Source: Candidatus Latescibacterota bacterium (lineage in GTDB: Bacteria; Latescibacterota; UBA2968; UBA8231). Taken from it: DNA of 64,000 bases. The DNA lies in NCBI GenBank assembly GCA_965223905.1, contig CBDCXV010000011.1, forward strand, positions 1,504,001 through 1,568,000, given 5' to 3'. Shown piece after piece: positions 1,913 through 38,839 of the stretch. Made by a program: the position numbers and the translations under genes. The notes beneath the pieces were generated by a model. It did no database searches. It saw only the letters and a list, made by a program, of their open reading frames with translations, and was not told the origin of the DNA. Each line of letters begins with the position of its first letter. The stretch's first letter is position 1.

Positions 1913-2188
1913 ATGGATATTGGATTTGTATGGGATAAAGGCAAGTACCAAGAAGTTCAAGACAAACACCAAGTCCGGTTTTATGAGGCAGTATCCGCAT
2001 TTGATGATTCGAGGGGGTGCGAAATCGCTGATCCAGCAGGCCATGAAGATCGATGGATGTGGATTGGGGCAACTTTCAGCGGTCGCGTATTAGCTCTCGT
2101 TTACTCGGAAGAGAATTTACCGCTCTATCGGTTTATCACGGCATTTGATGCAAAAGGCAGATTCCTCGATGAGTACAAAAGAATTTGA
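1913..2188 (+). CDS. brnT: BrnT-family toxin (RelE-fold ribonuclease)
   Basis: 91 aa: FVWDKGKYQEVQDKHQVRFYEAVSAFDD...HEDRWMWIG...VLALVYSE...YRFITAF. GGAG upstream. 3' end overlaps the next ORF. Confidence 0.75.
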   Translation: MDIGFVWDKGKYQEVQDKHQVRFYEAVSAFDDSRGCEIADPAGHEDRWMWIGATFSGRVLALVYSEENLPLYRFITAFDAKGRFLDEYKRI

Positions 2189-3602
2189 CTACCAGGCTTT
2201 CATGAATAGCTCTCCCGGCCTTGGTGAAATCCATCGTGGGCCTAAGGCGCGGGACCAACGACGAACAGCCTCCGAAGGGCGGATTTCTCAGTGTGAGGAA
2301 TTGAAAGGGGTTTTCCAGATAATCCAGGAAATTACCAAAATCTCCGCCACCGGTGACTACATCTACCGAGGAGAACCTAAGCACTATAGCAAGGTGTCGT
2401 CGAGTCTCTATCGCGAATGGTCGGAGATTGATAAAGATATCAATGTGGTAGCTGTCCAAAATGAAATTCTGAAAGAAGCAAAGAGATTTGTTTACGATAA
2501 TGATGAACTGGAAATCCTGACCCAACTCCAACACTACGGAGGAGCAACCAACCTGATAGACTTTACTACCGACTACCTTGTAGCCATGTTCTTTGCCTGC
2601 GATGGCTCCGATCTCCTAAACCAAAATGGTAGAATCATTTTGCTTGAGAAAAGCAGCGAGATCAACAAACAGCTTGAAATCCCTCGCAATCCCAGGAATC
2701 GTGTCATGGCTCAGAAAAGTATTTTTGTTCGGCCACATCGCGGATTTATTGAACCAGATCATGTCGTTAATATTCCGAAAGCTCTTAAAACCCCCATCCT
2801 AAACTACTTGTGGAAATGCCACGACCTATCTACTGCTGCCATATACAACGATCTTCACGGCTTTATCAAATTCCAGAAGATTCATCATCGTTCGCATTCC
2901 AAGTATTTCTCTGGGCTTCTATGTCAAAAAAAAGAGGCTTATCGCAAAGCCATTGAACATTATACGGAGGCAATTAAACTGAATCCTAGGTTAATTGATG
3001 CTTATTGTAATCGCGGAGCTGCCTATAGCAACGAAGGCGTGTACCACCTTGCCATTGAGGACTACAACAAAGCCATAGAACTGGACCCGGACGACGTAGA
3101 AATCTATTTCAATCGTGGCCTTGCTCAGACGGGCAACGGCGCTTTCGACCTTGCTATTGAGGACTACAACAAAGCCGCAGAACTAGACCCGAATGACGTG
3201 GAAATATATGTTAGTCGCGGTCTGGCTCAGATAGGCAAAGGTGCATATGATCTTGCTGTTGAAGACTACAACAAAGCCATAGAACTGAACCCAGACGATT
3301 CCAGGATCTATTTCAATCGAGGCAACGCTCACCTAAAGCAAGGTGAGTATGATCACGCTGTCCAAGACTACAACAAAGCCATAGAACTGAACCCTAATGA
3401 CGCCAAAGCTTATTTTAACCGCGGAGTAATTTGGCTGTCCAGGAAAAATTGGCCACGGGCCCAATCAGACCTGACTGCTGCCAAGAACCTTGGCATTGAT
3501 ATTCTCTCGGCATTTCGTAACGACTACCAAAACGTCGAGGGATTTCAGCAACAATTAGGAGTTCGGCTGCCTGAAGATATCGTGGCAATGCTGACGTCAT
3601 AG
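2169..3602 (+). CDS. FRG-domain + TPR-repeat protein with a BrnA-antitoxin-like N-terminal segment
   Basis: FRG motifs YIYRGE, LQHYGGATNLIDFT, AMFFAC, NRVMAQKSIF. About 6 TPRs (AIEDYNKAIELDP). ATG 2169 overlaps brnT. Confidence 0.85.
   Translation: MSTKEFDYQAFMNSSPGLGEIHRGPKARDQRRTASEGRISQCEELKGVFQIIQEITKISATGDYIYRGEPKHYSKVSSSLYREWSEIDKDINVVAVQNEILKEAKRFVYDNDELEILTQLQHYGGATNLIDFTTDYLVAMFFACDGSDLLNQNGRIILLEKSSEINKQLEIPRNPRNRVMAQKSIFVRPHRGFIEPDHVVNIPKALKTPILNYLWKCHDLSTAAIYNDLHGFIKFQKIHHRSHSKYFSGLLCQKKEAYRKAIEHYTEAIKLNPRLIDAYCNRGAAYSNEGVYHLAIEDYNKAIELDPDDVEIYFNRGLAQTGNGAFDLAIEDYNKAAELDPNDVEIYVSRGLAQIGKGAYDLAVEDYNKAIELNPDDSRIYFNRGNAHLKQGEYDHAVQDYNKAIELNPNDAKAYFNRGVIWLSRKNWPRAQSDLTAAKNLGIDILSAFRNDYQNVEGFQQQLGVRLPEDIVAMLTS
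3057..3430 (+). repeat. 102-bp tandem coding repeats (TPR units)
   Basis: GACTACAACAAAGCC..AGAACT recurs at ~3060, 3162, 3264 and 3366 (34-codon period). Confidence 0.85.
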
Positions 3603-3797
3603 CAAGTCGCTGCCGCACCGAGAGGCGGCGTCTTCAGTTCCCACCCCCACAGACATCCGTTGCCCTCTTTTGCAGGGACCTTGAAATTCCCGCTTACCTC
3701 GGATGGGCTACACCCATTTTTTTCTCTACAGGGCGTGGGATCAGGCATCGGGGCACCCACCGACATTTCCTTCCGAAAGGACACCCCCGCTCCCAAC

Positions 3798-4445
3798 TCA
3801 GAAAACCAGCCGGGTATAATCCTCCCACTGGTGGAAGCCCAGGGTCGTAAGGTGTGCCGTCGAGGAGTGCTCCGGGTCTTCCAGTCCCCCGTTGTAGTTG
3901 TAGCGGCAGACCGCGAAGGACCACTCCGCCCCCGGGCTCGGGGCTGAATCGAGGCCGAACGCCTTCCAGGGAATGCGGATCTCCACCGCCCACCTGTCCT
4001 CGAGCCGCCAGACCCGCCGCAGCGTCCCGCTGGCCGGTGCGATCACCTCCTCCCAAGTAACCTCCCCCGCAGTGAAGCGGTCCCGGTCGGGAATGTGGAG
4101 GTCCATCAGGAAGCCGTTTGGAGTGATGTGGATCTCCCAATAGTCGCTGCGCTCCCCACCCGGCTTGACGAAGAACTCGGCGACGTCTCCGAGGGTCCAC
4201 ATCCGCTGGTTGTCCGCGGTCGCCTGCGAGAAGATGTCGCTGTCGGTGAAGCAGGTGTAAAAGCTCAGGCCGTCTTCGGCGGCACCGACGCAGGCGCTTC
4301 CCCTTTCGGCCGGAAAGACCTCCGGCCCATCCCAGTACCGGCGCAGCGGAAGAAGTGCCGATTCCCGGTATTTCTCGGGCTGCTCGACGCCGAAGTCTTC
4401 GACGTCCCCGGAAACCCGGGGACAGCGGATCGAAGGGGTTGCCAT
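3798..4445 (-). CDS. Carbohydrate-binding family 9-like (DOMON-type) protein
   Basis: MWTLGDVAEFFVKP, YWEIHITPNG, WAVEIRIPWKAF, WSFAVCRYNY. Start chosen at MATPSIR. Confidence 0.7.
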   Translation of the reverse strand: MATPSIRCPRVSGDVEDFGVEQPEKYRESALLPLRRYWDGPEVFPAERGSACVGAAEDGLSFYTCFTDSDIFSQATADNQRMWTLGDVAEFFVKPGGERSDYWEIHITPNGFLMDLHIPDRDRFTAGEVTWEEVIAPASGTLRRVWRLEDRWAVEIRIPWKAFGLDSAPSPGAEWSFAVCRYNYNGGLEDPEHSSTAHLTTLGFHQWEDYTRLVF

Positions 4446-5024
4446 TTCCAGAGCTCCTTTGACGGAAGGCAGGGGGAGATCCTCCCCGCGCGCGGCGATA
4501 CGGGTCCCCTCCTGAAATAGTTGAGGCACTGTTCCGGTCCAGGAACGATGGCTGCCTGGGCCGCGTTTGAGCGGCTCGGAAAATTCCGCACTCTCGATGG
4601 TTCCTGGACCGATCACGCCGAATAAATGGAACCAGATACCGGCAATTAACATGGTCTCCATCTGCTTCCCCCTCGCTTGACGGCCGCCTTGCCCGGGCGG
4701 CAGTTTGGTTTCCGGTCTCGCTTCCGACCCTTTCTGATTACATGAAAAAGTGATAAAACCGGAAGAAACCCCACCAGTATTCCACACCGACGGGCGAATC
4801 CGGCTCGGGAAGAAGCCGGGGACCGGGACCGTCATCGTCCGCCTCCCCTTCGTGGCCTCGGTGGATGGTGCCGTACCCAGGCAGTGCTGCCCGGCACGAT
4901 TTCATTCCCGGATTCGGGTTGTTGCATCCCGGCATCCGGCTCCTTTACCTGAGTTCGCTCGAGCAGGACACCGTACCGGTCCGCAACCTCCGCGGACCTG
5001 ACCCGAAGACTTCGAGGTGACGAC

Positions 5025-6224
5025 ATGAAGATCAAGAGCATCCGCGCCGTGCAGGCCCGTTTCCCCGAACCTTTCGCTGCCGGCCCCGGCCAGAAGCAGT
5101 ACAACACGGCGCCCCGTCCCTCATGGATGGAGAGCGGCCCGGTCGCCAACCCGATGACCCGGTACCCGCGCTACGCCGCCTACCGGCCATCCTGGACCCC
5201 GACCTGGAGCGGCTTCGGCTGCCTGGTCGAAGCCGAGGACGGCAGCTGGGGGTTCGCGACGGCCAGCCACGGGCGCCCGGTGGCGGCGATCATCGACGAC
5301 TACCTCGGACCCCGGCTCGAGGGGGAATCCTGCCTGGCCACGGAGAAGTGCTACGACATGATGGTGCGCATGGGGGCGCCCCACGGCGCCGCCGGCCTGC
5401 ACTCCTACGCGGTCAGCGCCGTCGACCTCGCCCTGTGGGACCTCAAGGGAAAGCTGCTGCAGCGTCCGGTGTACGAGCTCATCGGCGGCCCCGCCCGCGA
5501 CGAGCTGTTCTGCTACTCGACCGGCGGCGACACCGACTGGTACATGGAGCTCGGCTTCCGCGCGACCAAGCTGCCCTGTCCGTACGGCCCGGCCGACGGC
5601 CTCGAGGGGCTGAGGAAGAACGTCGAGCTGGTGGCCGGCACCCGCGAGCTGGTCGGCGACGAGGTCGAGTTGATGCTCGACTGCTGGATGGCGTTCGATC
5701 TCGAGTACGCCGTCCGCCTCGGGGAGGAACTGCGGCCCTGCAAGCTCAAGTGGATGGAGGAGGTGCTGCGTTCCGAGGAGCTCGACGCCCACGCCGAGCT
5801 GCGCCGGCGGCTGCCCTGGCAGACCCTGGCGACGGGAGAGCACTGGTACACGACGGCCCCGTTCCAGCAGGCGGCGAGCCGCTTCCTCGTCGACATCCTG
5901 CAGCCGGACATCAACTGGGTGGGCGGCCTCACCGCGCTCGTCAAGATCTGCGCCATCGCCGAGGCGGCCGGCATCTCCGTCATCCCGCACGGAGGCGGCA
6001 ACACCCCCTACGGCCAGCACGCCTGCTACGCGCTGCCGGCCATCCCCTGGACCGAGTGCTTCGTCGGCTCCGCTCCCGGCGTTCCTCCCGAGCAGGCGGC
6101 CCGGATACCGGGGGCAGCGATCCCGAAGGAAGGGCGGATGAAGCCGTCCGGCGCCCCCGGCTTCGGAGTCGAGCTCACCCTCGACCAGCTGTCTCCGTTC
6201 GACTACGGGTCTTCAGGGGGATAG
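5025..6224 (+). CDS. Mandelate racemase/muconate lactonising (enolase) family dehydratase, L-rhamnonate dehydratase-like
   Basis: SAVDLALWDLKGK, MLDCWMA, KWMEE, TGEHWYT, LQPDINWVGG, IPHGG. GAGG RBS. Confidence 0.88.
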   Translation: MKIKSIRAVQARFPEPFAAGPGQKQYNTAPRPSWMESGPVANPMTRYPRYAAYRPSWTPTWSGFGCLVEAEDGSWGFATASHGRPVAAIIDDYLGPRLEGESCLATEKCYDMMVRMGAPHGAAGLHSYAVSAVDLALWDLKGKLLQRPVYELIGGPARDELFCYSTGGDTDWYMELGFRATKLPCPYGPADGLEGLRKNVELVAGTRELVGDEVELMLDCWMAFDLEYAVRLGEELRPCKLKWMEEVLRSEELDAHAELRRRLPWQTLATGEHWYTTAPFQQAASRFLVDILQPDINWVGGLTALVKICAIAEAAGISVIPHGGGNTPYGQHACYALPAIPWTECFVGSAPGVPPEQAARIPGAAIPKEGRMKPSGAPGFGVELTLDQLSPFDYGSSGG

Positions 6225-6270
6225 TCCCTTCGGCTTCCCCTTCCGCCTGAGTTTCCCCACCGAACCGAAG

Positions 6271-7215
6271 TCAGGAACCCGACGTCGCCGAGAGGATGCG
6301 CTTGTCCTTGCGGTCGCTGGCCTCGTAGAAGAGGCGGAAGCGGCCGTCGGGCAGCTCGGTGACGCAGGGCTCGGAAACCATGTGGCGGTCCAGCGGCGCG
6401 CCGAGGTCGAGGCAGGGCTCAGGTTCCTTGCGCCATTCCAGACCGTCCGTCGAAGTAGCCGTGAAGACGCCGCCGTTGATCCCCTTGCTCCAGGCGGCGT
6501 AGTACATCCGGTAACTGCCGTCACCGAGGCGGACGACCTCGGGCGAGTATACTGCGACGTTTTCGCGTTCCGTCTCCTGAGCGATGCGGGCACCCGGTTC
6601 GAACTCCCACTGCAGCCCGTCGCTCGACAGGGCGCTGAGGATCTTCTTCCCGGCCTCCGGATCGGGGCTCCGCGGATGGGGATACCGGTGGAAGTAGAGA
6701 CGGCGCCGGCCGTCTTCGAGGTAGAGGCAGCGTGGGGTGCCGTAGGACCATTCGCCGTCGCCGATGCGCACGCCTTCTTCCAACTCCCAGGACAGGCCGT
6801 CTGCTGAAACGGCGCTGAGGATGACCGTCGGCGCCTCGCCGCTGCGTGCTTCGTAGTACATCCGCCAGCGGCCGTCGGGCAGCGGCACCACGTCGGGGCA
6901 GAGGGTGCGCGTGGTGGCGTGGGGGCTGCTGAGGTCGACGCGGATCCCTTCCTCTTTGGTCCAGCGCTCGGCGTCGTCGGAACGGGCGCTGAGGATGTAG
7001 CCGACCGCATCGGGATCGGGATGAGCCGGTCCGAGGCCGGTGTAGTAGATGCGATAGCCGCCGGCCGGCAGCCGGACGACGTTGGGGGTCAGGATGCTGC
7101 CGGAGTCCAGAGGGCTGTCGAGATCGAGGGCGATCCAGGGATCCTTGGTCCAGTCGGTTCCGGGGTCGCGCTTGTGGTAGTGGACGGCGGTCAGGGGATC
7201 GAAGGGACGGGCCAT
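6271..7215 (-). CDS. Five-bladed beta-propeller glycoside-hydrolase-like protein
   Basis: Repeated blades P.VV.LPDG.WRMYY...ILSA.S.DGL.W..EEG.RI. Confidence 0.75.
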   Translation of the reverse strand: MARPFDPLTAVHYHKRDPGTDWTKDPWIALDLDSPLDSGSILTPNVVRLPAGGYRIYYTGLGPAHPDPDAVGYILSARSDDAERWTKEEGIRVDLSSPHATTRTLCPDVVPLPDGRWRMYYEARSGEAPTVILSAVSADGLSWELEEGVRIGDGEWSYGTPRCLYLEDGRRRLYFHRYPHPRSPDPEAGKKILSALSSDGLQWEFEPGARIAQETERENVAVYSPEVVRLGDGSYRMYYAAWSKGINGGVFTATSTDGLEWRKEPEPCLDLGAPLDRHMVSEPCVTELPDGRFRLFYEASDRKDKRILSATSGS

Positions 7216-7279
7216 GGCAGGGTGACTCCGGTGAAGGGAAGGAACGATATCGTCCAGCGGTCTCGGAGGCCAGGCGTCG

Positions 7280-9007
7280 CTAGCGGCTCTGCGAACCGCT
7301 GGGAGCTTCGCCGCTCCCGCGGGACCCTCGAAGACCCCTCAGCTCCGCGATCTTCCCCTCCGCCCCCTGGCGGATGAAGAGCAGCTTGTTGGCGGGGACC
7401 GAGGCGACCGTTTGCCCGCTTCCGTCCGGCCACCCGACCTCGACGGAATCGACCTCCTCCAGGGAACCGAGCCCGAAATGGGCGCGGATGTCGCTGGCCG
7501 ACAGGTAGCTCCCGGAGCTGTCTACGACCCGCACCTGGGTGCGGCCCCCCGCCCGCACCCGGACCTCGGCGCCGGCGCCGTCGCGGTTGGACTTCGTCCC
7601 CTCGACCTCGACCACGAGGCAGTTCCCCTCCTCCCGGTCGTTGCGCAGCAGGGTGGGGGTGTCGTTGAGGTTGACCACCAGGACGTCGACGTCGCCGTCG
7701 TCGTCGTAGTCGCCGAAGCCGGCGCCGCGGCTGACCTTCTCGACCTTCAGCCCGGGGCCGGCGGCGGCGCTGACGTCGGCGAACCCACCGCCCCCGTCGT
7801 TGCGGAAGACCTGGTTCTGCTGGCGGTAGCTGGTGCCGGTCGGGGCGTCGTCCACCTCGGGGAAGACGTGCCCGTTGGCGACGAACAGGTCGAGGTCGCC
7901 GTCGTTGTCGAGGTCGGCGAACTGGGTGCCCCAGCCGAGCCGGGTCAGGGTCACTGCCTCGAGGTCGGCCTGCACCGTGAAATCGGAGAAGCGGCCGCCC
8001 CCCTCGTTCCGGTAAAGGGTGTTGCTCTCGCGGAAGAAGTTGGTGACGTAGAGGTCGGGATCGCCGTCGCCGTCGAAATCGCCGCTGTCGACCCCCATGC
8101 CCGCCTCCTCGTCGCCGTCGCCGCTGTAGGCGACCCCGGAAACCAGGCCGGATTCGGCGAACGTCGCGTCGCCGCGGTTGCGGAAGAGCAGGTTCGGTGT
8201 CTGGTCGTTGGCGACGTAGAGGTCGACGAGGCCGTCGCCGTCGAAATCCCCCGGGAGCACGCCGAGCCCGAAATAGATTGCCGAAGCCCCGACCCCGGAG
8301 CTCCCGGTGACGTCTGCGAAACGACCGCCGCCGTCGTTGCGGTAGAGGACGTCGGCGGCCCCCTCCATGCCGAGGGGCCCGCAGTAGGTCTTGATCCCGC
8401 CGACGTAGTCGCAGTCGACGCGCGGATTGTCGCGCAGGTCGAAGCGGACGTAGTTGGCGACGTAGAGATCGAGATCGCCGTCGTTGTCGTAGTCGAAGAA
8501 GGCAGCCCCCGCGCTGTACCCGTCTCCGGCCACCCCGGCGGCCTCCGCTACATCGGCGAAGCTGCCGTCGCCGCGGTTCCCGTACAGCAGGTTGGCGCCG
8601 TAGTTGGTGACGTAGAGATCGCGGTCGCCGTCGTTGTCGATATCCCCGACCGCGCACCCGGCGCCCCACCCGGCGTCGTCGACCCCGGAGGCCGCGGCGA
8701 CGTCGGAGAAGGTGCCGTCGCCGTTGTTGCGGTAGAGGGAGTTCCCCGGACCGGAGCGCTCCTGGTAGGTCTCGAAGGTCGAGCCGTTGACGAGGTAGAG
8801 GTCGAGGTCGCCGTCGCCGTCGCTGTCGAAGAACCCGGCGCCGCTGCCGTGCGCCTCGAGGATGTACCTCTTCTCCATCCCTCCGAAGACGTTGAGCGCG
8901 GTGACGCCGGCGGCTTCCGCCTGATCGCTGAAACGGATCTGCGGCGCGCAGACCGAGGGAGCTGCCAGAATGGCCAGCAGGTGCGCGCCCGCCAGGACGA
9001 GCCGCAC
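7280..9007 (-). CDS. CRTAC1 family protein (FG-GAP/VCBS repeats + ASPIC/UnbV domain), secreted
   Basis: Multiple D.D.DGD.DLYV.N Ca-binding repeats. C-terminal SNRDGAGAEV...SYLSASDIRAHFGLG. Start uncertain (GTG 9007 or ATG 9139). Confidence 0.88.
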   Translation of the reverse strand: MRLVLAGAHLLAILAAPSVCAPQIRFSDQAEAAGVTALNVFGGMEKRYILEAHGSGAGFFDSDGDGDLDLYLVNGSTFETYQERSGPGNSLYRNNGDGTFSDVAAASGVDDAGWGAGCAVGDIDNDGDRDLYVTNYGANLLYGNRGDGSFADVAEAAGVAGDGYSAGAAFFDYDNDGDLDLYVANYVRFDLRDNPRVDCDYVGGIKTYCGPLGMEGAADVLYRNDGGGRFADVTGSSGVGASAIYFGLGVLPGDFDGDGLVDLYVANDQTPNLLFRNRGDATFAESGLVSGVAYSGDGDEEAGMGVDSGDFDGDGDPDLYVTNFFRESNTLYRNEGGGRFSDFTVQADLEAVTLTRLGWGTQFADLDNDGDLDLFVANGHVFPEVDDAPTGTSYRQQNQVFRNDGGGGFADVSAAAGPGLKVEKVSRGAGFGDYDDDGDVDVLVVNLNDTPTLLRNDREEGNCLVVEVEGTKSNRDGAGAEVRVRAGGRTQVRVVDSSGSYLSASDIRAHFGLGSLEEVDSVEVGWPDGSGQTVASVPANKLLFIRQGAEGKIAELRGLRGSRGSGEAPSGSQSR

Positions 9008-9196
9008 GGGAGCCGGTCGATTCGAAGGCCCTTCAGGGGTTGTAATGGCATCGCCGCAGGAGCCCCTGCGCACGCCAGGGCCGGACCCGGGATTCAACAA
9101 GCGGAAGTTGCCCGCACCAGGTTTTTCATCCGTTCTCATATGTACCGTAATTCTAAACGATCGAGCTGTTCGTCACCCGAAACGATACTCAGTGAG

Positions 9197-10087
9197 ATGA
9201 GCGACGCGAACCCCGGAAGCGAAACCGGCGGCGGTTCTCCGTTCCCGGTCCTGACCCCTGCACAGCGGATGTACCTCGAGGTCAACGGGTACGTCGTTCT
9301 GAAGGAGTTCATATCCGGCGAGCGGGTGCGGGAGCTGCTCGACACCATCCGCCGGATGGAGGCGGAGTACCGCGCGACCGGCGCCCTCCCTGGCTCCGAC
9401 TGCCACCTGTCGGCAACGAGCGAGGAGTACTTCCGCATCGACAACCTGCCCCACCTGGCTCCCTGCTTCTTCGACTACGTCACCGATCCCCGGATCGTCG
9501 CCGCGGCCGAGGAGATCACCGGCGGCACGGTGCGCCTCGAGCAGTCGGACGCCCACGTGCGCAGGCCGGGCGCCGCCAACGAGAGCTACGGGTTCCACCG
9601 CAGCATCAGCAACGGCTACGGCCACGTCAGCGAGTCCGGACTCTACCACTACTCGTTCGTCAAGGCGCTGACCAACCTCACCGACCTGGGGCCGGACGAC
9701 GGCGGCACCGCGGTGATCGCCGGCACCCACAAGGTCCCGCCCGAAGTCGGCAGGGAGGAAATGATAACCGCGGCCATGGAAGACCCGCGCCTCATCCACC
9801 AGGTCGAGGCTCCAACCGGCTCCACCTTGCTGTTCTTCGAGTCGCTCATGCACTCCCACGGGATCATGCGCTCCGGCCGCGAGCGCGTGCTCGTGATCGG
9901 CGGCTACACCCCGACGATGTTCCAGACCTGGCGCGGGTACGAGCCGAGCGCCGATTTTGTCGCCACCCTGCCGGACGAGCACCGCGCCCTGCTCACCGGG
10001 GAAGCGCGCTACGGTGTGCAGCGAAAGGGCCGCGACCTCGGAACCCCGGCGCGGACCACGCCTGCAAACGGAGAAACCGGATCTTGA
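9197..10087 (+). CDS. PhyH-family Fe(II)/2OG dioxygenase with non-canonical H-R-S metal motif
   Basis: EVNGYVVLKEF, DGGTAVIAGTHK, GSTLLFFESLMH. Motif FHRS in place of HxD. ATG alternatively at 9140. Confidence 0.85.
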   Translation: MSDANPGSETGGGSPFPVLTPAQRMYLEVNGYVVLKEFISGERVRELLDTIRRMEAEYRATGALPGSDCHLSATSEEYFRIDNLPHLAPCFFDYVTDPRIVAAAEEITGGTVRLEQSDAHVRRPGAANESYGFHRSISNGYGHVSESGLYHYSFVKALTNLTDLGPDDGGTAVIAGTHKVPPEVGREEMITAAMEDPRLIHQVEAPTGSTLLFFESLMHSHGIMRSGRERVLVIGGYTPTMFQTWRGYEPSADFVATLPDEHRALLTGEARYGVQRKGRDLGTPARTTPANGETGS

Positions 10088-10869: not shown

Positions 10870-11101
10870 TTCCCCCGGGCGCGGCGTCCTTCCAAGACGA
10901 ACCACCTTCCTTTCGCCGAGGCGTCCGTCTCTCAAGCCTCCTGAGCGGGCCGTCCAGGGGGGTTGTTCTGCGAGCCGGGGAAACCCGGGAACCGGGAACC
11001 GATGGGACCACCGCACAGATTTTCCGGGTTGGATTGAACCGGGGATTTCTCCATCGAGATGAAGCGGCCGCCGAATTCCCGCGGAGTTGCGCGTGCGGGC
11101 G

Positions 11102-17753: not shown

Positions 17754-17786
17754 CCGGATCCTGCACCGGGATAGCAGGGAGTTCCC

Positions 17787-28790: not shown

Positions 28791-28965
28791 GTTTCGTGCC
28801 TCTCGCTTTCGTTTGGGGGACGGGAGTTGGATATTTCCGGCGGCTGCCGGCGACGGAAGATACCGGGCAGCAGGGGCTGCGACAATGCGCCGCGGCGGCG
28901 CTTTCCCGGACAGCTTCTGCCCCCCGAAACCGCCCCAATTTTCACTCCTCAGACAAGGACGAATC

Positions 28966-29706: not shown

Positions 29707-29718
29707 GCCGGCCCGGGG

Positions 29719-30486: not shown

Positions 30487-30669
30487 TGCTTGCTCTCCTC
30501 GGCCCGGGAGCCCTTCCTGCAGGAGGCTCCCGCAGCCCGGGTGGTAGTTGAAACAGGTCCTTCCGCTTGCAGATGCGCTTCAGAGTATGGGAGCCGGTGG
30601 CAAAAGTCCATCCGCCGCGGCCTTGCGTTCCGGGCGGCGGGGAGGCTTTATCAGCAGCCTGCCAGCCCG

Positions 30670-30916
30670 TGAACGCTCCCTCCCCGATTCCCCTGCGATT
30701 CGACCCGGCCGCGCGCCCGGCACCTTCTGGGTGCAGGACCCGCGCGCCCTTCACCGCGGCACCCCCAACACCTCGGACAGGCCGCGGCCGGAACTGGTGA
30801 TCTGCTACTCCCTCTCCTGGTTCCGCATCAGCCGGCCGGTCGAGATCCACCGAGAAAGTTTCGAGCAGCTCGACGCACGCGGGAAGGAGCTTTTCAGCCG
30901 CGCCGAGGTGCTGTAG
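30670..30916 (+). pseudogene. C-terminal fragment of a PhyH-family dioxygenase
   Basis: PGTFWVQDPRALHRGTPNTSDRPRPELVICYSLSWF matches the C-terminal His/Arg region of the 21139 protein type. No HxD half upstream. Confidence 0.65.
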
Positions 30917-31013
30917 TCCGGCAGGGATCGCCGCGGGCGTGGCCCTGGTTTCGCGAACTTCATCCCCTGAATCCGGCCGCCCCGTTCCTTCCGGGCCTGC
31001 CCCCGAAGACGCG

Positions 31014-32018
31014 CTAACCCTCTTCGGCAAGCACGCCGTCGAACCACTCGAGCACGCGCAGGGTGCGCTCGGTGCTCAGGTCGCCGTGCTTGCCGTCGTA
31101 CTCCTCGTAGATGTGCGGCACCTGCGCTTCTTCGAGGCGCTCGTGCAGGATGCGGTGCCCGAGGTGGAAGTGGTACTCGTCGCGGAATCCGCAATCGGTG
31201 AACAGGTGCATGCTGCGGAAGGCCGCGGCGTACCTCTCGTACGCCCGTACCGGGTCGAAGTGCAGCCACTTCCGCCACACCTCCTCGTCGAGGTCGCCGT
31301 TGGGAAAGCGGATCGGCAGGTCGCCGCAGTAGGGGGGGTTGTCCGGGTTGGGGGAATAGGCCGCGGCGAGGCCGTAGCAGATCCAGGAGTTGTAGTTGTC
31401 CCGGATCGGCCCGTTGAACCCCTTGGGCCAGGAGGAGTTCACCAGGTCGACGAGCCAGGGGACATGGGTGACCTCGAAGTAGATGTCGGCGCTACGGACC
31501 GCGGCCGCGGCGAAGATCTCGGGGAAGCCGCCGCCTACGTGGAAGGCCCCGATGCCGCCGCTCGAGACCCCGGTCACCAGGCGGTGGCTGCGCTCCGGCA
31601 CGGTGCGGTAATGGGCGTCGACGTAGCCGACCACGTCGTCGGCCACGTAGCTGGCGTAGTTGCCGTTGATCCCCGAATCGACCCACTGGCTGCAGCCCCA
31701 GCGGTTGTGGCCGTCCGGGGCGACGAGGATCATCTCCCGGCAGCTCTCCCCCTGCATCCGCTCGTCCGCGGCGTGCAGGAAGGAGCGCCAGCCCGGCCCC
31801 GAGGAGAGGGAGAAGTCGTTGGCCCAGGACCACGCGGTGCCGCCGAAGCCGTGCAGGATGTAGGCGACCGGGTAGCGCCGCGACTCCGACTCGCCGTAGG
31901 AACGCGGCAGCAGCACGGCGAGGTTGCGGACCGCGGGATCCCCCAGCCTGTTGTCTTCGAGATGGCGCCCGTGAATGGTGTCGATCTGCAGTCGTTGCGC
32001 CCGTTCCTCCGGTGTCAT
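31014..32018 (-). CDS. Putative esterase (alpha/beta hydrolase)
   Basis: RYPVAYILHGFGG, nucleophile GVSSGG, DCGFRDEY, YEEYDGKH. Confidence 0.88.
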   Translation of the reverse strand: MTPEERAQRLQIDTIHGRHLEDNRLGDPAVRNLAVLLPRSYGESESRRYPVAYILHGFGGTAWSWANDFSLSSGPGWRSFLHAADERMQGESCREMILVAPDGHNRWGCSQWVDSGINGNYASYVADDVVGYVDAHYRTVPERSHRLVTGVSSGGIGAFHVGGGFPEIFAAAAVRSADIYFEVTHVPWLVDLVNSSWPKGFNGPIRDNYNSWICYGLAAAYSPNPDNPPYCGDLPIRFPNGDLDEEVWRKWLHFDPVRAYERYAAAFRSMHLFTDCGFRDEYHFHLGHRILHERLEEAQVPHIYEEYDGKHGDLSTERTLRVLEWFDGVLAEEG

Positions 32019-32103
32019 CGGCAGCTCCCTGGTTGCTGTTTTGAGCTACATTAAACCCGCATTGCCCTGCGAAAACAAGCGACATGCCGGCGAGAGGATC
32101 GTC

Positions 32104-32883
32104 ATGACCCCATTCGAACAAGCGGTTGCCGAAATCGAGATCTACGGATTCACCCTGGTAGCGGATGTCCTCGATCCCGGCCAGATCGAGGCCTTGAAAG
32201 GCGCCCTCGTCCGCTGCGCCGGGGAGGTCGGAGTGCACGGGTACGAAAACCGCAACGCCACCTCCGTGCTGGTCGCCAACCTGCCGGCGCGGGACCCGGT
32301 CTTTTTCCAGGTCATCGACCATCCCGCCATCCTTCCGATCCTCGAGCACTTTCTCGACAGGACCCTCATCCTCGGCAGCCTCAGCTCGCGCATCGTCCGG
32401 CCGGGCGACGGCGAGCAGGATTTCCACAGCGACATACCGGCTCACATGCTCAACCCGGTCTCCCCGGTCATGATGAACACCGTGTGGATGCTCGACGATT
32501 TCAGCCCCGAGATCGGCGGCACCCGCATCGTGCCCGGCTCGCACAGAAGCGGCCTCGCCGGCCCGCCGCAGGGGATGGAGGTCAGGCACGTGTTTCAACC
32601 CGAGGCCGCGGCGGGAAGCGTGCTGATCTTCAACGGCCAGTGCTGGCACGCCGGCGGCGCCAACAGCACCGGCCGCAATCGCCACGCCCTGTTCGCCCAC
32701 TACCGCAAGTCGATGCTGATGTTCCAGCTCGACCCCCACGATGGTTTTCCGGCGGCATGGCACGACAGACTGAACCGGCGCCAGAAGGAGCTGCTGCGCA
32801 TGCAGTCCGGCCTCAACGAAAGCCACGCCTCGGACGAGCACCTCGCCCGGTTGCTCCCCAGGAAGGATCGCGAGGCGGGATGA
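32104..32883 (+). CDS. PhyH-family dioxygenase, close paralog of 28966-29706
   Basis: Identical blocks EIEIYGFT, FHSDIP, SPVMMNTVWMLDDFSPE, FNGQCWHAGGAN, FQLDPHDGFPA. Confidence 0.9.
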   Translation: MTPFEQAVAEIEIYGFTLVADVLDPGQIEALKGALVRCAGEVGVHGYENRNATSVLVANLPARDPVFFQVIDHPAILPILEHFLDRTLILGSLSSRIVRPGDGEQDFHSDIPAHMLNPVSPVMMNTVWMLDDFSPEIGGTRIVPGSHRSGLAGPPQGMEVRHVFQPEAAAGSVLIFNGQCWHAGGANSTGRNRHALFAHYRKSMLMFQLDPHDGFPAAWHDRLNRRQKELLRMQSGLNESHASDEHLARLLPRKDREAG

Positions 32884-32921
32884 ACTTCCCGGGGCTCGAA
32901 AAAGCCTCGGAAGGTTAAGAG

Positions 32922-33653
32922 ATGAGTCGGTTTCTGATTGTCCTGATAATGGCAGGCGTAGCTGAAGCGCACAGCGGGAACCGCGTGTATCCCTTCTACG
33001 AGCTTACGGATGAAATGCTGGAGAAGATCGACTTGCACGATGGATTGATCGACGAATGGTATGAGATCGGTGAACCGAGCATGACCCTGCTGGATTTCAA
33101 GACCAACGGCGACATTATTCCACTCAATCCGTCCAATCTCGACTTTCGCATCTGGCTAGCTTGGCATGATGAGCCGAATCGTATCTATGTGGCTTTCATC
33201 ATCAGTGACGATGAATACAAGAACACCCATGATTGGTCCAGCGAAACAGCGACTATGAGATGGCTTGATTTTAATGACAGCATCACCCTCTACCTTGACG
33301 CCGATCACAGCGGTGGCAGGGGATTAGTAGATATTGCAGGTGATGTAGCCGATGAGGAAAGAATGCGTATTTTCGGACATACGCAGATGTATAATGTAAT
33401 TGCTCAAACGGTAAGCGGCCCAACCATGGCCGCGGGTAGTATAATCAGGGAAAGAGAGCCCCGGCATAATCTACCCCCCTATTGGGGATATTCTCCTACC
33501 CCCTGGCATCCAGAAGCCATTGATGATGACGATGCGCATCTGAGGCTTCATGATTATATGGCCGACCTCTTCATCGATGGGCTGCTGGTTCCCGCTCAGG
33601 AAACAGCCGTCGAGTCCGTCACCTGGAGACGCATCAAGGCGTCTTTGGAGTAA
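32922..33653 (+). CDS. Secreted DOMON/CBM9-like protein with C-terminal TAVE..TW..IK motif
   Basis: Signal peptide (AEA/H). IDLHDGLIDEW, DFRIWLAWHD, DSITLYLDADHSGG. Ends TAVESVTWRRIKASLE. Lower GC. Confidence 0.7.
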   Translation: MSRFLIVLIMAGVAEAHSGNRVYPFYELTDEMLEKIDLHDGLIDEWYEIGEPSMTLLDFKTNGDIIPLNPSNLDFRIWLAWHDEPNRIYVAFIISDDEYKNTHDWSSETATMRWLDFNDSITLYLDADHSGGRGLVDIAGDVADEERMRIFGHTQMYNVIAQTVSGPTMAAGSIIREREPRHNLPPYWGYSPTPWHPEAIDDDDAHLRLHDYMADLFIDGLLVPAQETAVESVTWRRIKASLE

Positions 33654-33683
33654 GACCCTCATCGTCTTTCTGTTCCTGCTCGG

Positions 33684-35307
33684 GTAACCGTTCAGTTCCC
33701 CTGGCAGGTTGGGGCGGGGGCGGAATGGTAGCAGGTTGACTATTAACGAATGGGGGAGTGGGTTGAAGGCAGCAGCGAGGGCGCCGGCTGCTTAGACACG
33801 GCGGCGTCACAGGCCATCCTGAGATAGTCGAGGACGTTGCGCTGCTGCTGGCGCAGGGTATCGCGCACCGTGAGCAGGCGCTCTACGAAACGGCTGCCTT
33901 CGGCACTGTGGGTGCCGAAGCTGGTGTGACGCCACAACACGCCATGGCGAAGGGCTCGTTCGGCGTCGTTGTTGGTCGGCTCGACGCCGGGCCGGCGTGC
34001 GAAGGTCCACAGGGCCGGCCCGAGGTCGAGGAGATTGGCGCAGGTGGCCGCCGTCTTGGCGTCGGCGAACTGCTGCCCATAGCACAAATGAAACCGAAAG
34101 CGCAGACACAAATCGTCGATATAGTCCTGGAAGCGGGCGCGGGACAGGGTACCGTCGCGGACTTGATGCCACCAGGTAAACAGCTGCTCGCTGCGGTCCA
34201 ACAGGTGTTGACCGACGCGCTCGGCCTCTCCGCCCCGGGCCACGAACTCCTCGAAGGCGCGCCGCAGGTGAGCCCAGCAGACTTGCCGGCGTCGCAGCGG
34301 CAGATGCGCGTAGGCCGAATAGCGATCGCAGCCGACCACCGCCCGGTTATCCGCACCCAGCATCTCATCGACCCCGTCGCGGTTACGTCTTTTGCGGATG
34401 GAGAACACGGTGACGCCGTCCGTCACCGCGGTCCACAACCAGGCCTTGGCGCGGCGCTGGCGCCAGCCGGTCTCGTCGACGTTGACGATGCCCTGTCGGC
34501 GAACGAAGGCGCGCGCCTCCTCGACCGCACCCGCCAGGGCCGTGGCCACTTCCTGTTCCAGCCGGCTGACGGTACCCAGCGACACCTCCAGGCCGAAGGC
34601 GTCGGACAACAGCGCCCGGATGTTGCGCTTGCTCAGCCGGTAGGCCCCGGCCAACAGGCCGACCCAGGCTTGCACGCTGGGACCGAAGGTGTGCCGCGAT
34701 ACGCCCTCGGGCCAACCGGCTTCGGTCAGGCGGTCGCAGTGACCGCAGCGCAGGGTGTGCAACTGATACTCGATGACCTCGGCCCGCACCGGCGGGATGA
34801 CGACTGCCTGGTGACGCTGCGGATGGGGATCGTCTCCCGTCAACAGGTGCCCGCATCCGTGGCACGTACTCGGCTTGACCGGGATCAGTTCGTCCACCTG
34901 CTCCACCGATACCCACGAGCGGCCGTGTCCTTCGTGCCCGGGCTGTCCGCCCGGCGAGCGCCCCGAGGATCGGCGTCGGGAGGCGTCGGTGCGAGGCGAG
35001 GAGGAAGCGCCCGATTCCGACGAGGCGGCCCGGGCACCGCGGCGGGACCGCCCCTTGCGGCGGGCCAATTCCCGCTCCAGCTCGGCGATCCGCGCCGTCT
35101 GTTGTTCCACGATTTGCTCGAGCTGGACAATGCGCTGACGCAAGTCGCCTTCGGAAATCGCACTCTCAGGGGGTCTCTTCATGGGGTCGCCGTATCCAGG
35201 GAAATCTGCAACACACAACCGATTCCCGAAGATACCGACGAACCCCAAAACCCGCGTAGGTATTTCTTTATATGCTCAAACTACTGCAGGGGGGACTGAA
35301 CGGTTAC
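33684..35307 (-). mobile_element. IS66-family insertion sequence, single-ORF (ISBst12-like), 1624 bp
   Basis: Terminal inverted repeats GTAACCGTTCAGT(T/C)CCC at 33684 and ending 35307. Perfect 8-bp target duplication CTGCTCGG at 33676-33683 and 35308-35315. Confidence 0.95.
33743..35182 (-). CDS. IS66 family transposase
   Basis: Coiled coil, PGGQPGHEG, Zn finger CHGCG/CGHC, VDETGW, CDRYSAY, CWAHLRR, PTNNDAERALR. Confidence 0.95.
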   Translation of the reverse strand: MKRPPESAISEGDLRQRIVQLEQIVEQQTARIAELERELARRKGRSRRGARAASSESGASSSPRTDASRRRSSGRSPGGQPGHEGHGRSWVSVEQVDELIPVKPSTCHGCGHLLTGDDPHPQRHQAVVIPPVRAEVIEYQLHTLRCGHCDRLTEAGWPEGVSRHTFGPSVQAWVGLLAGAYRLSKRNIRALLSDAFGLEVSLGTVSRLEQEVATALAGAVEEARAFVRRQGIVNVDETGWRQRRAKAWLWTAVTDGVTVFSIRKRRNRDGVDEMLGADNRAVVGCDRYSAYAHLPLRRRQVCWAHLRRAFEEFVARGGEAERVGQHLLDRSEQLFTWWHQVRDGTLSRARFQDYIDDLCLRFRFHLCYGQQFADAKTAATCANLLDLGPALWTFARRPGVEPTNNDAERALRHGVLWRHTSFGTHSAEGSRFVERLLTVRDTLRQQQRNVLDYLRMACDAAVSKQPAPSLLPSTHSPIR

Positions 35308-35464
35308 CTGCTCGGCCAAGCCAGCGCGCACGGTCCAAGGGGAGTTCAGCCTCTGGATGCGGCAGCTTGCCGGACGGAGAGAGCCCGGTGATCGTTCGCG
35401 AGGTACTGCAGTCCTTGAGCTACAACGAGAATTCACGAGACCGACCCGATAACGGAGGATCGAC

Positions 35465-36436
35465 ATGAACTCTGACAAGGTGCGCTGGGGAATCATCAGC
35501 ACCGCCCGCATCGCCGCAACCGCTTTCGTTCCCGCGGTGCGCCAGACCCGGCGGGGGGAGGTAACCGCGGTCGCCAGCCGCAGCCGCGACAAGGGGGAAT
35601 CGTTCGCCAGGGAGCACGGGATTCCGCAGGTCTTCGACGACTACGCCAGCCTGCTGGCCAGCGACGGGATCGACGCCGTGTACAACCCCCTCCCCAACAC
35701 AATGCACCGCGAGTGGACGGAGGCGGCCGCGGCCGCCGGCAAGCACGTCTTCTGCGAAAAACCGCTGGCGACCACCGCGGCCGACGCCGAGGCGATGGTG
35801 GCCGCCTGTGAAGAGGCGGGGGTGGTCTTCTTCGAGGCCTTCGTCTTCCTCTACCACCCGCAGACCCTGAAGCTGCGCCGGCTCATCGACGAGGGGGCCA
35901 TCGGCGAGCTGCTGCAGCTGCACGCCCACATGAGCTTCCCCATCCAGCGGCCGACCGACAACATCCGCATGAACCGCGCCCTCGGAGGCGGCAGCCTCTA
36001 CGACGGCGGCTCCTACCCGATCACCTTCTCCCGCTTCGCCTTCGGTGACGAACCGGCCGGCCTCCAGTCGAAGTGCCTGATCGACCCGGAGTACCACGTC
36101 GACACCCGCGCGACCCTGATCCTGGAATTCTCAGGAGACCGGACCGCTTCCATTCAGGGCGGGTTCGACGCCTTCGGGGGACAAGGGGCGGTGCTGTTCG
36201 GCAGGGAAGCGGCGATCGAGATCCCCAGACCCTACCATCCCCAGGAACAGTCGAGCTTCGTAATTCGATCGGGGGGGAGCGAAGAGGTGGTCTCCTTCGA
36301 CACCGGGGTGGCGCCGTTCACGCCTGCCATCGAGCACTTCCAAGATTGCGTGCTCGACGGGGCGGAGCCGCTGGTTTCGGCGGCCAATGCGGTGGGGACG
36401 CTGCGGGTGATCGAGTTCGTGCTGGCTGGAGTCTGA
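35465..36436 (+). CDS. Gfo/Idh/MocA oxidoreductase
   Basis: RWGIISTARIA, YNPLPNTMH, KHVFCEKP, GGGSLYDGGSY. GGAGG RBS. Confidence 0.92.
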   Translation: MNSDKVRWGIISTARIAATAFVPAVRQTRRGEVTAVASRSRDKGESFAREHGIPQVFDDYASLLASDGIDAVYNPLPNTMHREWTEAAAAAGKHVFCEKPLATTAADAEAMVAACEEAGVVFFEAFVFLYHPQTLKLRRLIDEGAIGELLQLHAHMSFPIQRPTDNIRMNRALGGGSLYDGGSYPITFSRFAFGDEPAGLQSKCLIDPEYHVDTRATLILEFSGDRTASIQGGFDAFGGQGAVLFGREAAIEIPRPYHPQEQSSFVIRSGGSEEVVSFDTGVAPFTPAIEHFQDCVLDGAEPLVSAANAVGTLRVIEFVLAGV

Positions 36437-36525
36437 GAGCCGGCAGAGGCGTTAGGCCAACTGGGCAGGACCCCGGGTAGCGCAGCTTTCGATGAGCTAC
36501 TTTAACGGGCTGTACGATATTTTTT

Positions 36526-36795
36526 ATGCTTATGAAATTCGAGTTCGACCCTGAGAAAAACCGTGCCAATTTTGATAAACACGGCATCGATTTCGTCGCA
36601 GCCCAGACCTTATGGGAGGACCCTGCGTTGCTCCAGATTCCCGCGCGAACCACCGACGAACCACGCGACATGGTGATCGGCCGCATTGCGGGCAAGCACT
36701 GGTCTGGCGTGATAACAAAACGGGACGATGCAATCAGGATTATTTCTGTGCGGCGGGCACGCCGAGAGGAGGTCAGGCTCTATGAAGGCTCGTGA
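36526..36795 (+). CDS. brnT: BrnT-family toxin
   Basis: FEFDPEKNRANFDKHGIDFVAAQTLWED...EPRDMVIG...IRIISVRRARREEVRLYE. Confidence 0.92.
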   Translation: MLMKFEFDPEKNRANFDKHGIDFVAAQTLWEDPALLQIPARTTDEPRDMVIGRIAGKHWSGVITKRDDAIRIISVRRARREEVRLYEGS

Positions 36796-38188
36796 GTTCG
36801 ACGAGAAATTTGCAGAGGGGACAGACCTGATGCATGTCTTGGATATTTCTCAAGCCAAACGAATCAACCAAGTCCGGAAGCACGACAATACCGAGATGCG
36901 TATAGATCGTCTCGAAATCCGGAATTTCCGGTGCTTCGAGCACCGGGCGTTTGAATTCGACCCCCGATTCACCTTGTTGATCGGCGCAAACGCGACTGGC
37001 AAGACCGCTGTCCTCGAGGCCCTGGCCGTTGCCTTGGGGGCCGTATTGACCCCGGTTCCTGACGCAGCAAGCAGAGGGATCGGACGCCGAGACGTTCGTC
37101 GGATATATCGATTCGCAGGGGAGACCGGACACTTCGAGGATCAGTATCCGGCCCGCATCGAGGCAGGCGGATCGTTCGGTGGAAGGGAGCTGGTTTGGGT
37201 GCGCGAGTTGAAGTCTGCGAAATCCCGAACTACACGCGGGGAGACACGAGAAATCAGGCGAGCAATGAGTGACCTGATTCGTCAAAGCATCGACAACGAC
37301 CATACCGTTTACCCCTGCATCGGCTACTACGGCACCGACAGGTTCGGACTCGGGCAACGGCGAACAGCCAAAGGGGTCGATCCCTCTGGGCGCAACTCGC
37401 GCTACATCGGTTACCAGGGTTGCCTGACCCCGACCTCGTCCCCACGGTACCTGACCGCGTGGATCAAGCGCCTCGCCCTCATCGAGGCCCAACGGGGGGA
37501 ACCCCTGAAAACGCTTCGCGCCGTATACGAGGCCATCGCCGCTTGCGTCGAGAACGCCCTCGCCGCGGAGTTCGATTTCGAAGAGGACGACATCGTCGTC
37601 GAGTTCGGCAACGACACCCGCGCTCCCTTTCAAACCTTGAGCGACGGACAACGTAGCATGGGGGCCATCGCTGCGGACATCGCGATGCGCTGCTCCCAAC
37701 TCAATCCGCACCTGAACGACCGCGCTTCCGCAGAGACGCCCGGCATTGTATTGATCGACGAGCTCGATCTGCACCTTCACCCACGCTGGCAACGTGGAGT
37801 CATTGAAGACCTGGGCAAGACTTTTCCCCGGCTTCAGTTCATCGCCACCAGCCATTCGCCGTTCATCATCCAGTCCGTAAGCGAAGGCGGCGTGATCAAC
37901 CTGGATCAGGGGGATGACCTCCCGGAGACGCCGGAGTTGCAGAGCATCGAGGACGTCGCGGAAAACATCATGGGCATTGAACAGCCGCAACAAAGCCAGC
38001 GTTTTCAGAAAATGGTGGAGGCCGCCGAGGAGTATTTTCAACTCATTGAAAGTGCCTCGGCAGCGAACGACTCGGAAAAGGTCAAGAGCCTTCGAGAGCG
38101 GCTCGACGAACTCGAAGAACCCTTTGCAAACAACCCGGCCTACGTCGCTTTCCTGCGCTTGCAGCGGACGGGGAAGAATCTCCAATAA
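36782..38188 (+). CDS. ptuA: PtuA-like ABC/AAA ATPase (Septu type) preceded in frame by a 38-aa BrnA antitoxin N-terminus
   Basis: MKAREFDEKFAEGTDLMHVLDISQAKRINQ (BrnA-like, overlaps brnT), then MRIDRLEIRNFRCF (ATG 36896), GANATGKT, LSDGQR, VLIDELDLHLHPRWQR, TSHSP. Confidence 0.85.
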   Translation: MKAREFDEKFAEGTDLMHVLDISQAKRINQVRKHDNTEMRIDRLEIRNFRCFEHRAFEFDPRFTLLIGANATGKTAVLEALAVALGAVLTPVPDAASRGIGRRDVRRIYRFAGETGHFEDQYPARIEAGGSFGGRELVWVRELKSAKSRTTRGETREIRRAMSDLIRQSIDNDHTVYPCIGYYGTDRFGLGQRRTAKGVDPSGRNSRYIGYQGCLTPTSSPRYLTAWIKRLALIEAQRGEPLKTLRAVYEAIAACVENALAAEFDFEEDDIVVEFGNDTRAPFQTLSDGQRSMGAIAADIAMRCSQLNPHLNDRASAETPGIVLIDELDLHLHPRWQRGVIEDLGKTFPRLQFIATSHSPFIIQSVSEGGVINLDQGDDLPETPELQSIEDVAENIMGIEQPQQSQRFQKMVEAAEEYFQLIESASAANDSEKVKSLRERLDELEEPFANNPAYVAFLRLQRTGKNLQ

Positions 38189-38200
38189 TCCGAAACCTGG

Positions 38201-38839
38201 ATGGACCGACTCATGCGGCGTGTTGATCGAGGATCGTGGCCCCTGGACGATCAAAACAACCCCAAGAGATTTCAGCCGTACAACAAGGCCAAGGCGGATC
38301 TGCTTGAGAGACTCGGTCGATACTGTAGCTATTGCGAACGCCGGGGAGACCTCCACATAGATCATGTCGTCCCCAAAAGCCATCGGCCTGACTTGGAGGA
38401 AAAGTGGACCAATATGCTGCTCGGCTGTAGTAACTGCAACGGTACCAAAAGCGATAACAACCGTTCGCGACAAGGTTACCTCTGGCCGGACAAAGACAAC
38501 ACGGAAGCCGCCTTCTCATACTTGCCCGACGGAATTGTTCGAGTGCGAAACAACCTTCCAGGACCGATCCAAAGAAAAGCGCAGAGGTTGTTTGATCTAG
38601 TCGGGCTTGGCAAGAGCCGGACAAAGGATCCTCGTGCGAAAGATTTGAGACGGCGAGACCGTCGCGAGGCTTGGCGAACTGCGGAGATAGCACGGCAGAA
38701 TGCCAAAAATGGGGCCAGTGTTGACATGGTGATCACGTTGGCAAAGGCGACCGGATTCTTTTCGGTATGGATGGCGGTATTTGCAAACGAACCTCAGATA
38801 TGCAGTCTACTGCGGAACAGCTTCCCAGGAACGCGATAA
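38201..38839 (+). CDS. ptuB: HNH endonuclease, PtuB-like
   Basis: GRYCSYCE, IDHVVPK, NMLLGCSNCNGTK, TGFFSVWM, FPGT. 12 bp after the ATPase. Confidence 0.85.
   Translation: MDRLMRRVDRGSWPLDDQNNPKRFQPYNKAKADLLERLGRYCSYCERRGDLHIDHVVPKSHRPDLEEKWTNMLLGCSNCNGTKSDNNRSRQGYLWPDKDNTEAAFSYLPDGIVRVRNNLPGPIQRKAQRLFDLVGLGKSRTKDPRAKDLRRRDRREAWRTAEIARQNAKNGASVDMVITLAKATGFFSVWMAVFANEPQICSLLRNSFPGTR

Follow-up and report, generated by a model that had tools for sequence, protein, structure and literature searches.

What takes over from the antitoxin when a complete toxin gene of the brnTA type is followed by a gene for a defence protein? This question is raised by two loci in a 64,000-nt stretch of a Candidatus Latescibacterota genome (contig CBDCXV010000011.1, positions 1,504,001 to 1,568,000), called the window below. 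In canonical BrnTA systems, as outlined in Makarova 2009 (PMC2701414), the toxin gene precedes the gene for the antitoxin BrnA, which has a C-terminal ribbon-helix-helix (RHH) domain. An earlier reading of the window from its letters (the sequence-only reading) described two complete brnT genes, each overlapping an open reading frame (ORF) that starts like an antitoxin and continues into an unrelated protein, and proposed that this protein is itself the antitoxin. The observation is confirmed and generalised here, and its interpretation finds partial support. For neither toxin did this genome, which is 93.6% complete, yield an antitoxin candidate other than the fused protein, and it is probably the defence protein itself that keeps the toxin under control.

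Both toxins match the BrnT family PF04365. BrnT1 scores 53.8 bits (model positions 1-73 of 77), above the curated cut-off of 34.5 bits, and BrnT2 scores 87.5 bits (positions 1-77 of 77). The ATG of the FRG-TPR ORF at 2169 lies inside brnT1 by 20 nt, and that of the PtuA-fusion ORF at 36782 overlaps brnT2 by 14 nt. As the sequence-only reading had stated, neither frame runs into an RHH domain. The first, of 477 aa, continues stop-free into an FRG domain and a TPR array and matches the PADLOC candidate system PDC-S15 (PDLC04933, E 1.3e-21). The second, of 468 aa, continues into PtuA, with residues 39-466 covering positions 1-433 of 436 of the PADLOC model PDLC00278 and model position 1 falling at residue 39. 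Full-length PtuA is followed by PtuB with 12 nt between the genes, the gene order of Septu. Locus 2 is thus a complete Septu pair whose PtuA carries 38 additional N-terminal residues. This PtuA stays under the cut-off of the NCBIfam equivalog for PtuA of retron Ec78 (198 vs 500 bits).

The two fusions arose independently, as had been claimed: BrnT1 and BrnT2 have no BLASTP similarity (E 12), belong to different subfamilies, and each has canonical relatives of its own. The junction of locus 2 is spanned by contigs of two other studies, and therefore the fusion is not an artefact of one assembly. One of these contigs spans 36846-37150 with zero differences. The other spans 36772-38506 with 224 differences, including paired compensating indels. 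The locus-1 module has a G+C content of 40-48% in flanks of 59-73%, and for this reason it looks horizontally acquired. BrnT1 is 65-79% identical to toxins located 5' of other FRG-TPR or TPR fusions.

The sequence-only reading had suggested comparing both N-termini with models of BrnA. At locus 2 a public model suffices. Residues 1-34 of the PtuA fusion match NCBIfam NF047399 (BrnA_antitoxin_add) at positions 1-34 of 70 (E 1.3e-7). Canonical 74-aa BrnAs exist beside close relatives of BrnT2 in two related genomes (L095 and L104), and they are 75-78% identical to the fusion over residues 1-36, with 78% for the BrnA of L095. The BrnAs of L095 and L104 run on into the RHH domain at the point where the window PtuA fusion diverges.

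At locus 1 the match comes from a subfamily model. A metagenome scan with six BrnT1-type toxins gave 57 loci, of which 50 remain after exclusion of seven where the toxin match is partial. At least 33 of these 50 have, after the toxin, an antitoxin of 102-128 aa (lengths from ATG), which opens with the same motif-rich approximately 42 residues as the window FRG-TPR protein before running on into an RHH domain. A hidden Markov model (HMM) of 33 canonical antitoxins matches the FRG-TPR N-terminus with E 3.6e-6 at HMM positions 4-44 of 111, that is, in the pre-RHH part. In a search with this HMM over the six-frame translation of the whole genome (102,920 pieces), the sole better match was an ordinary BrnA, by way of its RHH domain. 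By BLASTP, the FRG-TPR N-terminus is 50% identical to one canonical antitoxin over 44 aa (E 5e-9).

The position of the break was determined from an alignment of the locus-1 segment with 19 canonical or minimal forms. In an AlphaFold2 model of a canonical BrnA (predicted local distance difference test, pLDDT, 73), helices at 11-17 and 29-40 are followed by an extended stretch at 41-48, which is the RHH strand, and then by the RHH helices. In the alignment, the locus-1-type fused forms retain both pre-RHH helices and break at the RHH strand. The break falls at or just before this strand wherever a canonical relative can be compared, namely at both window loci and at a DrmD-like fusion (L116). 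No RHH remnant was found downstream of the fusions, in the window, or in the genome. Of the features of BrnA, the fusions have the N-terminal homology and the overlapping start, and lack the C-terminal RHH domain. These comparisons support both N-termini as genuine BrnA front ends in which the RHH domain has been replaced. In a monomer model of the FRG-TPR protein, residues 1-40 have pLDDT 37-45 and the TPR array is above 90, which is weak evidence for a tail lying outside the fold of the cargo. Promoter and terminator scans gave chance-level counts at both loci.

The architecture is not confined to the window. The genome contains seven BrnT matches, and after five of them comes a long, overlapping ORF that begins like an antitoxin. 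These ORFs carry PtuA, FRG-TPR, two DrmD-like helicases, and one Tiamat (TmtA)-like protein as cargo. The 1055-aa DrmD-like SNF2 helicase fusion matches PDLC02623 from residue 41 (E 4.6e-116), and its N-terminus is 39% identical to a canonical antitoxin over 36 aa (E 1e-4). The 1088-aa DrmD-like helicase fusion matches from residue 69 (E 2.1e-172) with an N-terminus 80% identical over 64 aa (E 5e-32). In the 1511-aa TmtA-like fusion, which includes a helicase, the cargo match begins at residue 42 and the N-terminus is 43% identical over 30 aa (E 6e-5).

The search for brnT followed by a long ORF with a BrnA-like N-terminus, also suggested by the sequence-only reading, was positive in other genomes as well. 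There an antitoxin front end, 56% identical over 55 aa to a helix-turn-helix (HTH)-type antitoxin, is found on PbeA (E 7e-197), which is followed by PbeC. Another front end, 73% identical over 52 aa to a 72-aa antitoxin, is fused to an unknown protein of 796 aa, and the next gene encodes an OLD/GajA-like ATPase. A locus-2-type BrnA front end is found on UzuA (PDLC03973, E 7.2e-49). For a census on a global scale, the locus-1 segment was turned into a profile and compared with 1.84 billion representative proteins, which gave 101 clusters at E <= 0.001: 34 canonical with RHH, 23 in which the segment is followed by 60 or more other residues, 42 too short to be classified, and 2 spurious. Non-RHH cargo is therefore present in 23 of 57 classifiable clusters (10 TPR-only, 5 FRG or FRG-TPR, 2 TIR_2, and 6 without family). 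The TIR_2 proteins with a fused locus-1-type BrnA front end are P0153 (E 1.4e-24) and P0132 (E 7.4e-10). In all, the architecture recurs with at least eight kinds of cargo. Every cargo is complete from near its first residue, the match starting at model position 1 for PtuA, 3 for DrmD, and 11-14 for TmtA, UzuA, and PbeA. Two loci (L149 and L151) encode 63-aa proteins which consist of the segment without RHH and adjoin intact toxins.

BrnT is strictly linked to the N-terminal extension. FRG-TPR proteins come in long-N and short-N forms, and in the protein search the full extension was present in 20 of 62 clusters, counting that of the window. Among 80 FRG loci from species-representative genomes, 5 have the extension and 75 lack it. 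BrnT is located directly 5' of four of the five long-N loci and of none of the 75 short-N loci (one of which has no upstream DNA). In the fifth long-N locus (L009, about 2900-3360), only the last dozen codons of BrnT remain, and the FRG frame is cut off at 127 residues; toxin and cargo have decayed together. The long-N FRG-TPR forms that were compared have no Met where the short forms start. The same linkage is seen for UzuA, where BrnT is directly 5' of 3/3 fused loci and 0/5 unfused loci. No BrnT was found within 1.5 kb of the 5 unfused UzuA loci, of 6 unfused DrmD-like loci, or of 1 close unfused PtuA locus.

Some of the fusions are old. A tree was built of 49 BrnT1-type toxins. The 11 whose partner lacks an RHH domain (seven with FRG-TPR, one with TPR only, two with a 63-aa minimal form, and one with a duplicated form) all fall into one clade with support 98/93, which is nested among RHH-partnered toxins and spans Latescibacterota and Entotheonella records. 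A second TPR case sits elsewhere in the tree. Ratios of nonsynonymous to synonymous substitution rates (dN/dS, w) among six fused loci are 0.10-0.22 for the toxin in 15/15 pairs, 0.12-0.39 for the extension in the 12/15 pairs with usable dS, and 0.10-0.18 for the FRG domain in 11/15 pairs, all of them rough values as dS is saturated in several pairs. Toxin and extension are under purifying selection. In the UzuA fusions, the BrnA segments of L234 and L235 are a different allele from that of L233 (dN 0.41-0.43), whereas toxin and UzuA are about 94% alike among the three (dN about 0.05-0.06). The tag has been swapped by recombination and the fusion has been kept.

How might such a protein work? 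The reading that we rank first, and regard as somewhat probable, is a guard or back-up abortive-infection arm in which the defence protein is the antitoxin of BrnT. In this reading the RHH domain of BrnA has been replaced by a complete defence protein, which keeps the two-helix pre-RHH segment at its N-terminus; locus 1 is a two-gene operon and locus 2 a three-gene operon. The retained segment would be the element that binds and neutralises BrnT. This role is suggested by the 63-aa RHH-less forms beside intact toxins, together with the lack of another cognate antitoxin. BrnT would be co-produced with PtuA or the FRG-TPR protein and docked on it, so that the latter acts as antitoxin. Since the RHH domain is missing, the pair would be unable to repress its own promoter. 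BrnT would be freed by degradation or sequestration of the defence protein, by its remodelling on activation, or when its production stops, and would then cut RNA and halt growth. As a side effect, loss of the defence gene would be penalised. The TPR, FRG-TPR, and TIR cargoes may be the sensing half of such a sensor-antitoxin.

Several observations weigh against the guard reading. Pfam and NCBIfam HMMs have no match for the locus-1 N-terminus, and a set of BrnAs of the E-Y-D-F-S type gave no match to the locus-1 extension with hhalign or hmmsearch, this set being the wrong comparator. In the W-D-E-x-K motif, the window BrnT1 has Lys where five compared relatives have Glu; a solved BrnT relative has Ala at this position. 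A review (PMC5086665) counts Glu7 of Brucella BrnT among five residues that matter for its RNase activity, and by our own mapping the Lys of BrnT1 may correspond to it. PtuA retains its own ATG at residue 39, and therefore untagged PtuA may be produced too. Among the best-per-genome BrnT loci in relatives only 1/29 is fused, which makes five of seven in one genome unusual. The 1088-aa DrmD-like fusion was found in none of 131 other genomes of the class, in which its halves occur separately, and no PtuA fusion was found in 60 relatives. Consequently these two fusions are young and could be constrained accidents. To these points the roughness of the w values is to be added. Four diverged fused PtuA homologues (72-86% identity) are present in other assemblies.

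The side effect just mentioned could be the whole function. In this alternative, ranked second and considered unlikely, the fusion ties a stable toxin to a costly defence gene as an addiction device, so that a cell which deletes or silences the gene dies; there is no phage-triggered release, and the only part played in immunity is to retain the gene. This alternative would explain why the fused modules are intact next to a broken DruH, a broken second PtuA, and a broken restriction-modification-like gene upstream. L009, with its toxin deleted and its cargo broken as well, shows the order that addiction permits, and a generic stabiliser suits both the great diversity of the cargoes and the presence of the architecture at five of seven BrnT genes of one genome. 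Few broken neighbours were sampled, however, and an inactivating point mutation in the cargo, 3' of the segment, would leave the toxin neutralised, which limits the protection to loss of the whole gene. The TPR-only cargoes (100-300 aa) also resemble sensors rather than costly genes. It is less likely still that the fusions have no function for the cargo at all. Chance in-frame joins of brnA to downstream genes, an alternative which the sequence-only reading had offered, would survive because BrnT must stay neutralised, and the cargo would neither gain nor lose. This third-ranked explanation is credible mainly for the young fusions, given that the DrmD-like one is unique among 132 class genomes (it recurs in none of the 131 others) and the PtuA one was found in none of the 60 relatives. 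The retained PtuA start codon, the missing RHH remnant, and the allele swap in L234 and L235, which shows frequent recombination at the junction, are what would be expected of it. For the old FRG-TPR/TPR/TIR lineage it is unlikely, as this lineage forms one supported cross-phylum clade under purifying selection (w <0.4), and its long-N FRG-TPR forms have no internal start. All cargoes are complete from about the first residue. A simple deletion also fails as the origin of the DrmD-like fusion, since its canonical relatives (in three genomes) do not adjoin a DrmD-like gene.

The remaining explanation, ranked last and judged improbable, is that BrnT is not a free toxin but a stable RNA-binding or RNase subunit of a defence complex, recruited via the BrnA segment and active in that complex only. 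The strict co-occurrence with the extension and the purifying selection on both partners are compatible with this, and so is the change of Glu to Lys in the window BrnT1. In the parts of Bell et al. 2024 (PMC11090510) that deal with them, the BrnT-like genes 5' of CoCoNuTs are likewise described as not keeping all toxicity residues. Yet the same toxin subfamilies are found mostly in ordinary brnTA pairs, and the ATPase, helicase, TPR, and TIR cargoes are mechanistically unrelated, which argues against one shared enzymatic partnership.

The guard reading can be extended from the window to all cargoes. The BrnA front end would then be a portable docking tag that arms many unrelated immune proteins (Septu, Uzume, Tiamat-like proteins, DrmD-like helicases, Pbe, TIR, and TPR sensors) with the same ribonuclease, which is freed when the immune protein is destroyed, sequestered, or triggered by phage. 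We put forward this general, modular guard layer tentatively and lean towards doubting it. If the segment does tether BrnT, there would be a simple route by which a toxin-antitoxin pair becomes the suicide arm of an otherwise non-abortive defence, and toxin-antitoxin biology would be tied to defence by a fused peptide, beyond co-location in islands. The same 36-42-aa tag on PtuA, UzuA, TPR, TIR, and helicases, together with the untagged, BrnT-less relatives that exist, provides a natural series. Moreover, apparently orphan BrnT genes may hide their antitoxin as the N-terminus of the next long gene.

Effectors that stay silent while bound to a defence component and are freed by phage interference are known, such as PrrC with EcoprrI and AriB with AriA in PARIS. 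These systems, like retron Ec78 with Septu, differ from the fusions in that they are not known to use an antitoxin fragment fused to a defence protein. In the case of the retron, Septu PtuAB itself is reported to be the sequestered component (PMC12819146).

The fusions share much with the canonical type II toxin-antitoxin pair BrnT/BrnA (COG2929/DUF497 with COG5304/COG3514): the same PF04365 toxin, the toxin-first order, the overlapping antitoxin start, and homology over the first 36-64 residues of the second protein. They differ in lacking the RHH domain for DNA binding and dimerisation, which is replaced by a defence protein of 270-1470 aa. As summarised in the review (PMC5086665), BrnT and BrnA form a 2:2 tetramer that acts as a repressor at its own promoter, and this self-repression of the operon cannot operate the same way in the fusions. 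The nearest concept, as far as the text of Ernits et al. 2023 (PMC10440598) goes, is found in the PanA/Panacea antitoxins, where a small neutralising element (Phd-C, PAD1) is placed on a globular domain proposed to be sensory. The logic of a neutraliser with an accessory domain is the same. While Panacea combines one accessory domain with many toxins, here the neutraliser of one toxin family is combined with many complete, otherwise free-standing defence proteins.

A BrnT-like RNase gene is also located in the same direction directly 5' of RtcR-associated CoCoNuTs, an arrangement that Bell et al. 2024 (PMC11090510) regard as compatible with programmed cell death. The cargoes differ from those described here, and the passages of that paper on these genes, figures and supplements aside, mention no antitoxin segment on the downstream protein. 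Gerdes 2025 (PMC11980606) surveys BECR-fold toxins in multidomain and defence contexts and, in its text, links a PtuA-like ATPase to a RelE-type RNase. The BrnT fusions given there join the toxin to the whole antitoxin and keep the RHH domain in 31/33, unlike those described here. In ptuXYZ of the same paper, a YoeB-like domain ends the third gene and the ATPase is given without an antitoxin fragment, unlike locus 2. The literature search, which covered passages of the closest papers apart from their figures and supplements, found no account of defence proteins that carry a BrnA front end.

The features of the two loci are listed in the following table.

Features of the two brnT loci (window positions)
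Feature	Position	Strand	Evidence or remark
Locus 1: brnT1, 91-aa BrnT-family predicted RNase toxin, divergent subfamily	1913..2188	+	PF04365 E 2.5e-14
BrnA-derived N-terminal segment (aa 1-42) of FRG-TPR protein	2169..2294	+	Subfamily BrnA HMM, BLASTP
Fused ORF, 477 aa: BrnA N-terminus, FRG domain, TPR array	2169..3602	+	Stop-free ORF
FRG domain	2355..2609	+	PF08867 E 2.9e-14; aa 71-155 of the ORF counted from 2145
TPR repeat array, limits approximate	2901..3494	+	TPR_1 E 6.9e-53; five or six repeats
Locus 2: brnT2, 89-aa BrnT toxin	36526..36795	+	PF04365 E 7.4e-25
BrnA-derived N-terminal segment (aa 1-36) of PtuA protein	36782..36889	+	NF047399 E 1.3e-7
Fused ORF, 468 aa: BrnA N-terminus, two linker residues, full-length PtuA	36782..38188	+	Stop-free ORF
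PtuA ATPase proper, from internal ATG (start codon of unfused relatives)	36896..38188	+	PDLC00278 E 1.4e-132
PtuB HNH nuclease, Septu partner	38201..38839	+	PDLC00315 E 6.4e-70; PF01844 E 2.8e-8

Further arrangements were seen among the collected loci. In L126 the BrnA front-end motif occurs twice within one ORF, and in P0127 a BrnT fragment reads straight into the segment and a TPR array; these are further rearrangements at the same junction. In L092 (G002), a 176-aa frame with a BrnT match ends in RHH-like sequence. This is apparently a BrnT-BrnA fusion in a single chain, like those that Gerdes 2025 lists. In L114 (1398-5983, minus strand), the gene for a BrnA N-terminus fused to a DrmD-like protein is followed on its 3' side by a 518-aa piece of a TmtA-like sacsin ATPase, a transposase-like ORF, and a 554-aa ORF. 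This region looks like a Tiamat-like gene split by an insertion sequence.

The sequence-only reading had also described many neighbouring defence genes of the window as broken, which holds for some of them. Upstream of brnT1, the C-terminal part of a restriction-modification-like protein is encoded at 1433-1834 (plus strand). A gene of this kind also precedes the BrnT-FRG-TPR module in L008, L009, and L022, and the window copy appears frameshifted, as it occupies three frames where those loci have one intact frame. A Druantia type III locus is located at 40052-49470 (minus strand). In this locus DruH is split into ORFs at 48103-49470 and 46147-48069 (minus strand), whereas DruE (2032 aa, PDLC00037) is intact, contrary to the general claim. 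A second PtuA-like ATPase of 376 aa is encoded at 50655-51782 (minus strand). It has no BrnA-like N-terminus and is truncated C-terminally, since the model match covers only positions 1-334 of 421. Directly 3' of PtuB, at 38917-39703 (minus strand), a gene for a VapC PIN-domain protein (39320-39703) overlaps a DUF433 gene (38917-39360), and the two are probably another toxin-antitoxin pair.

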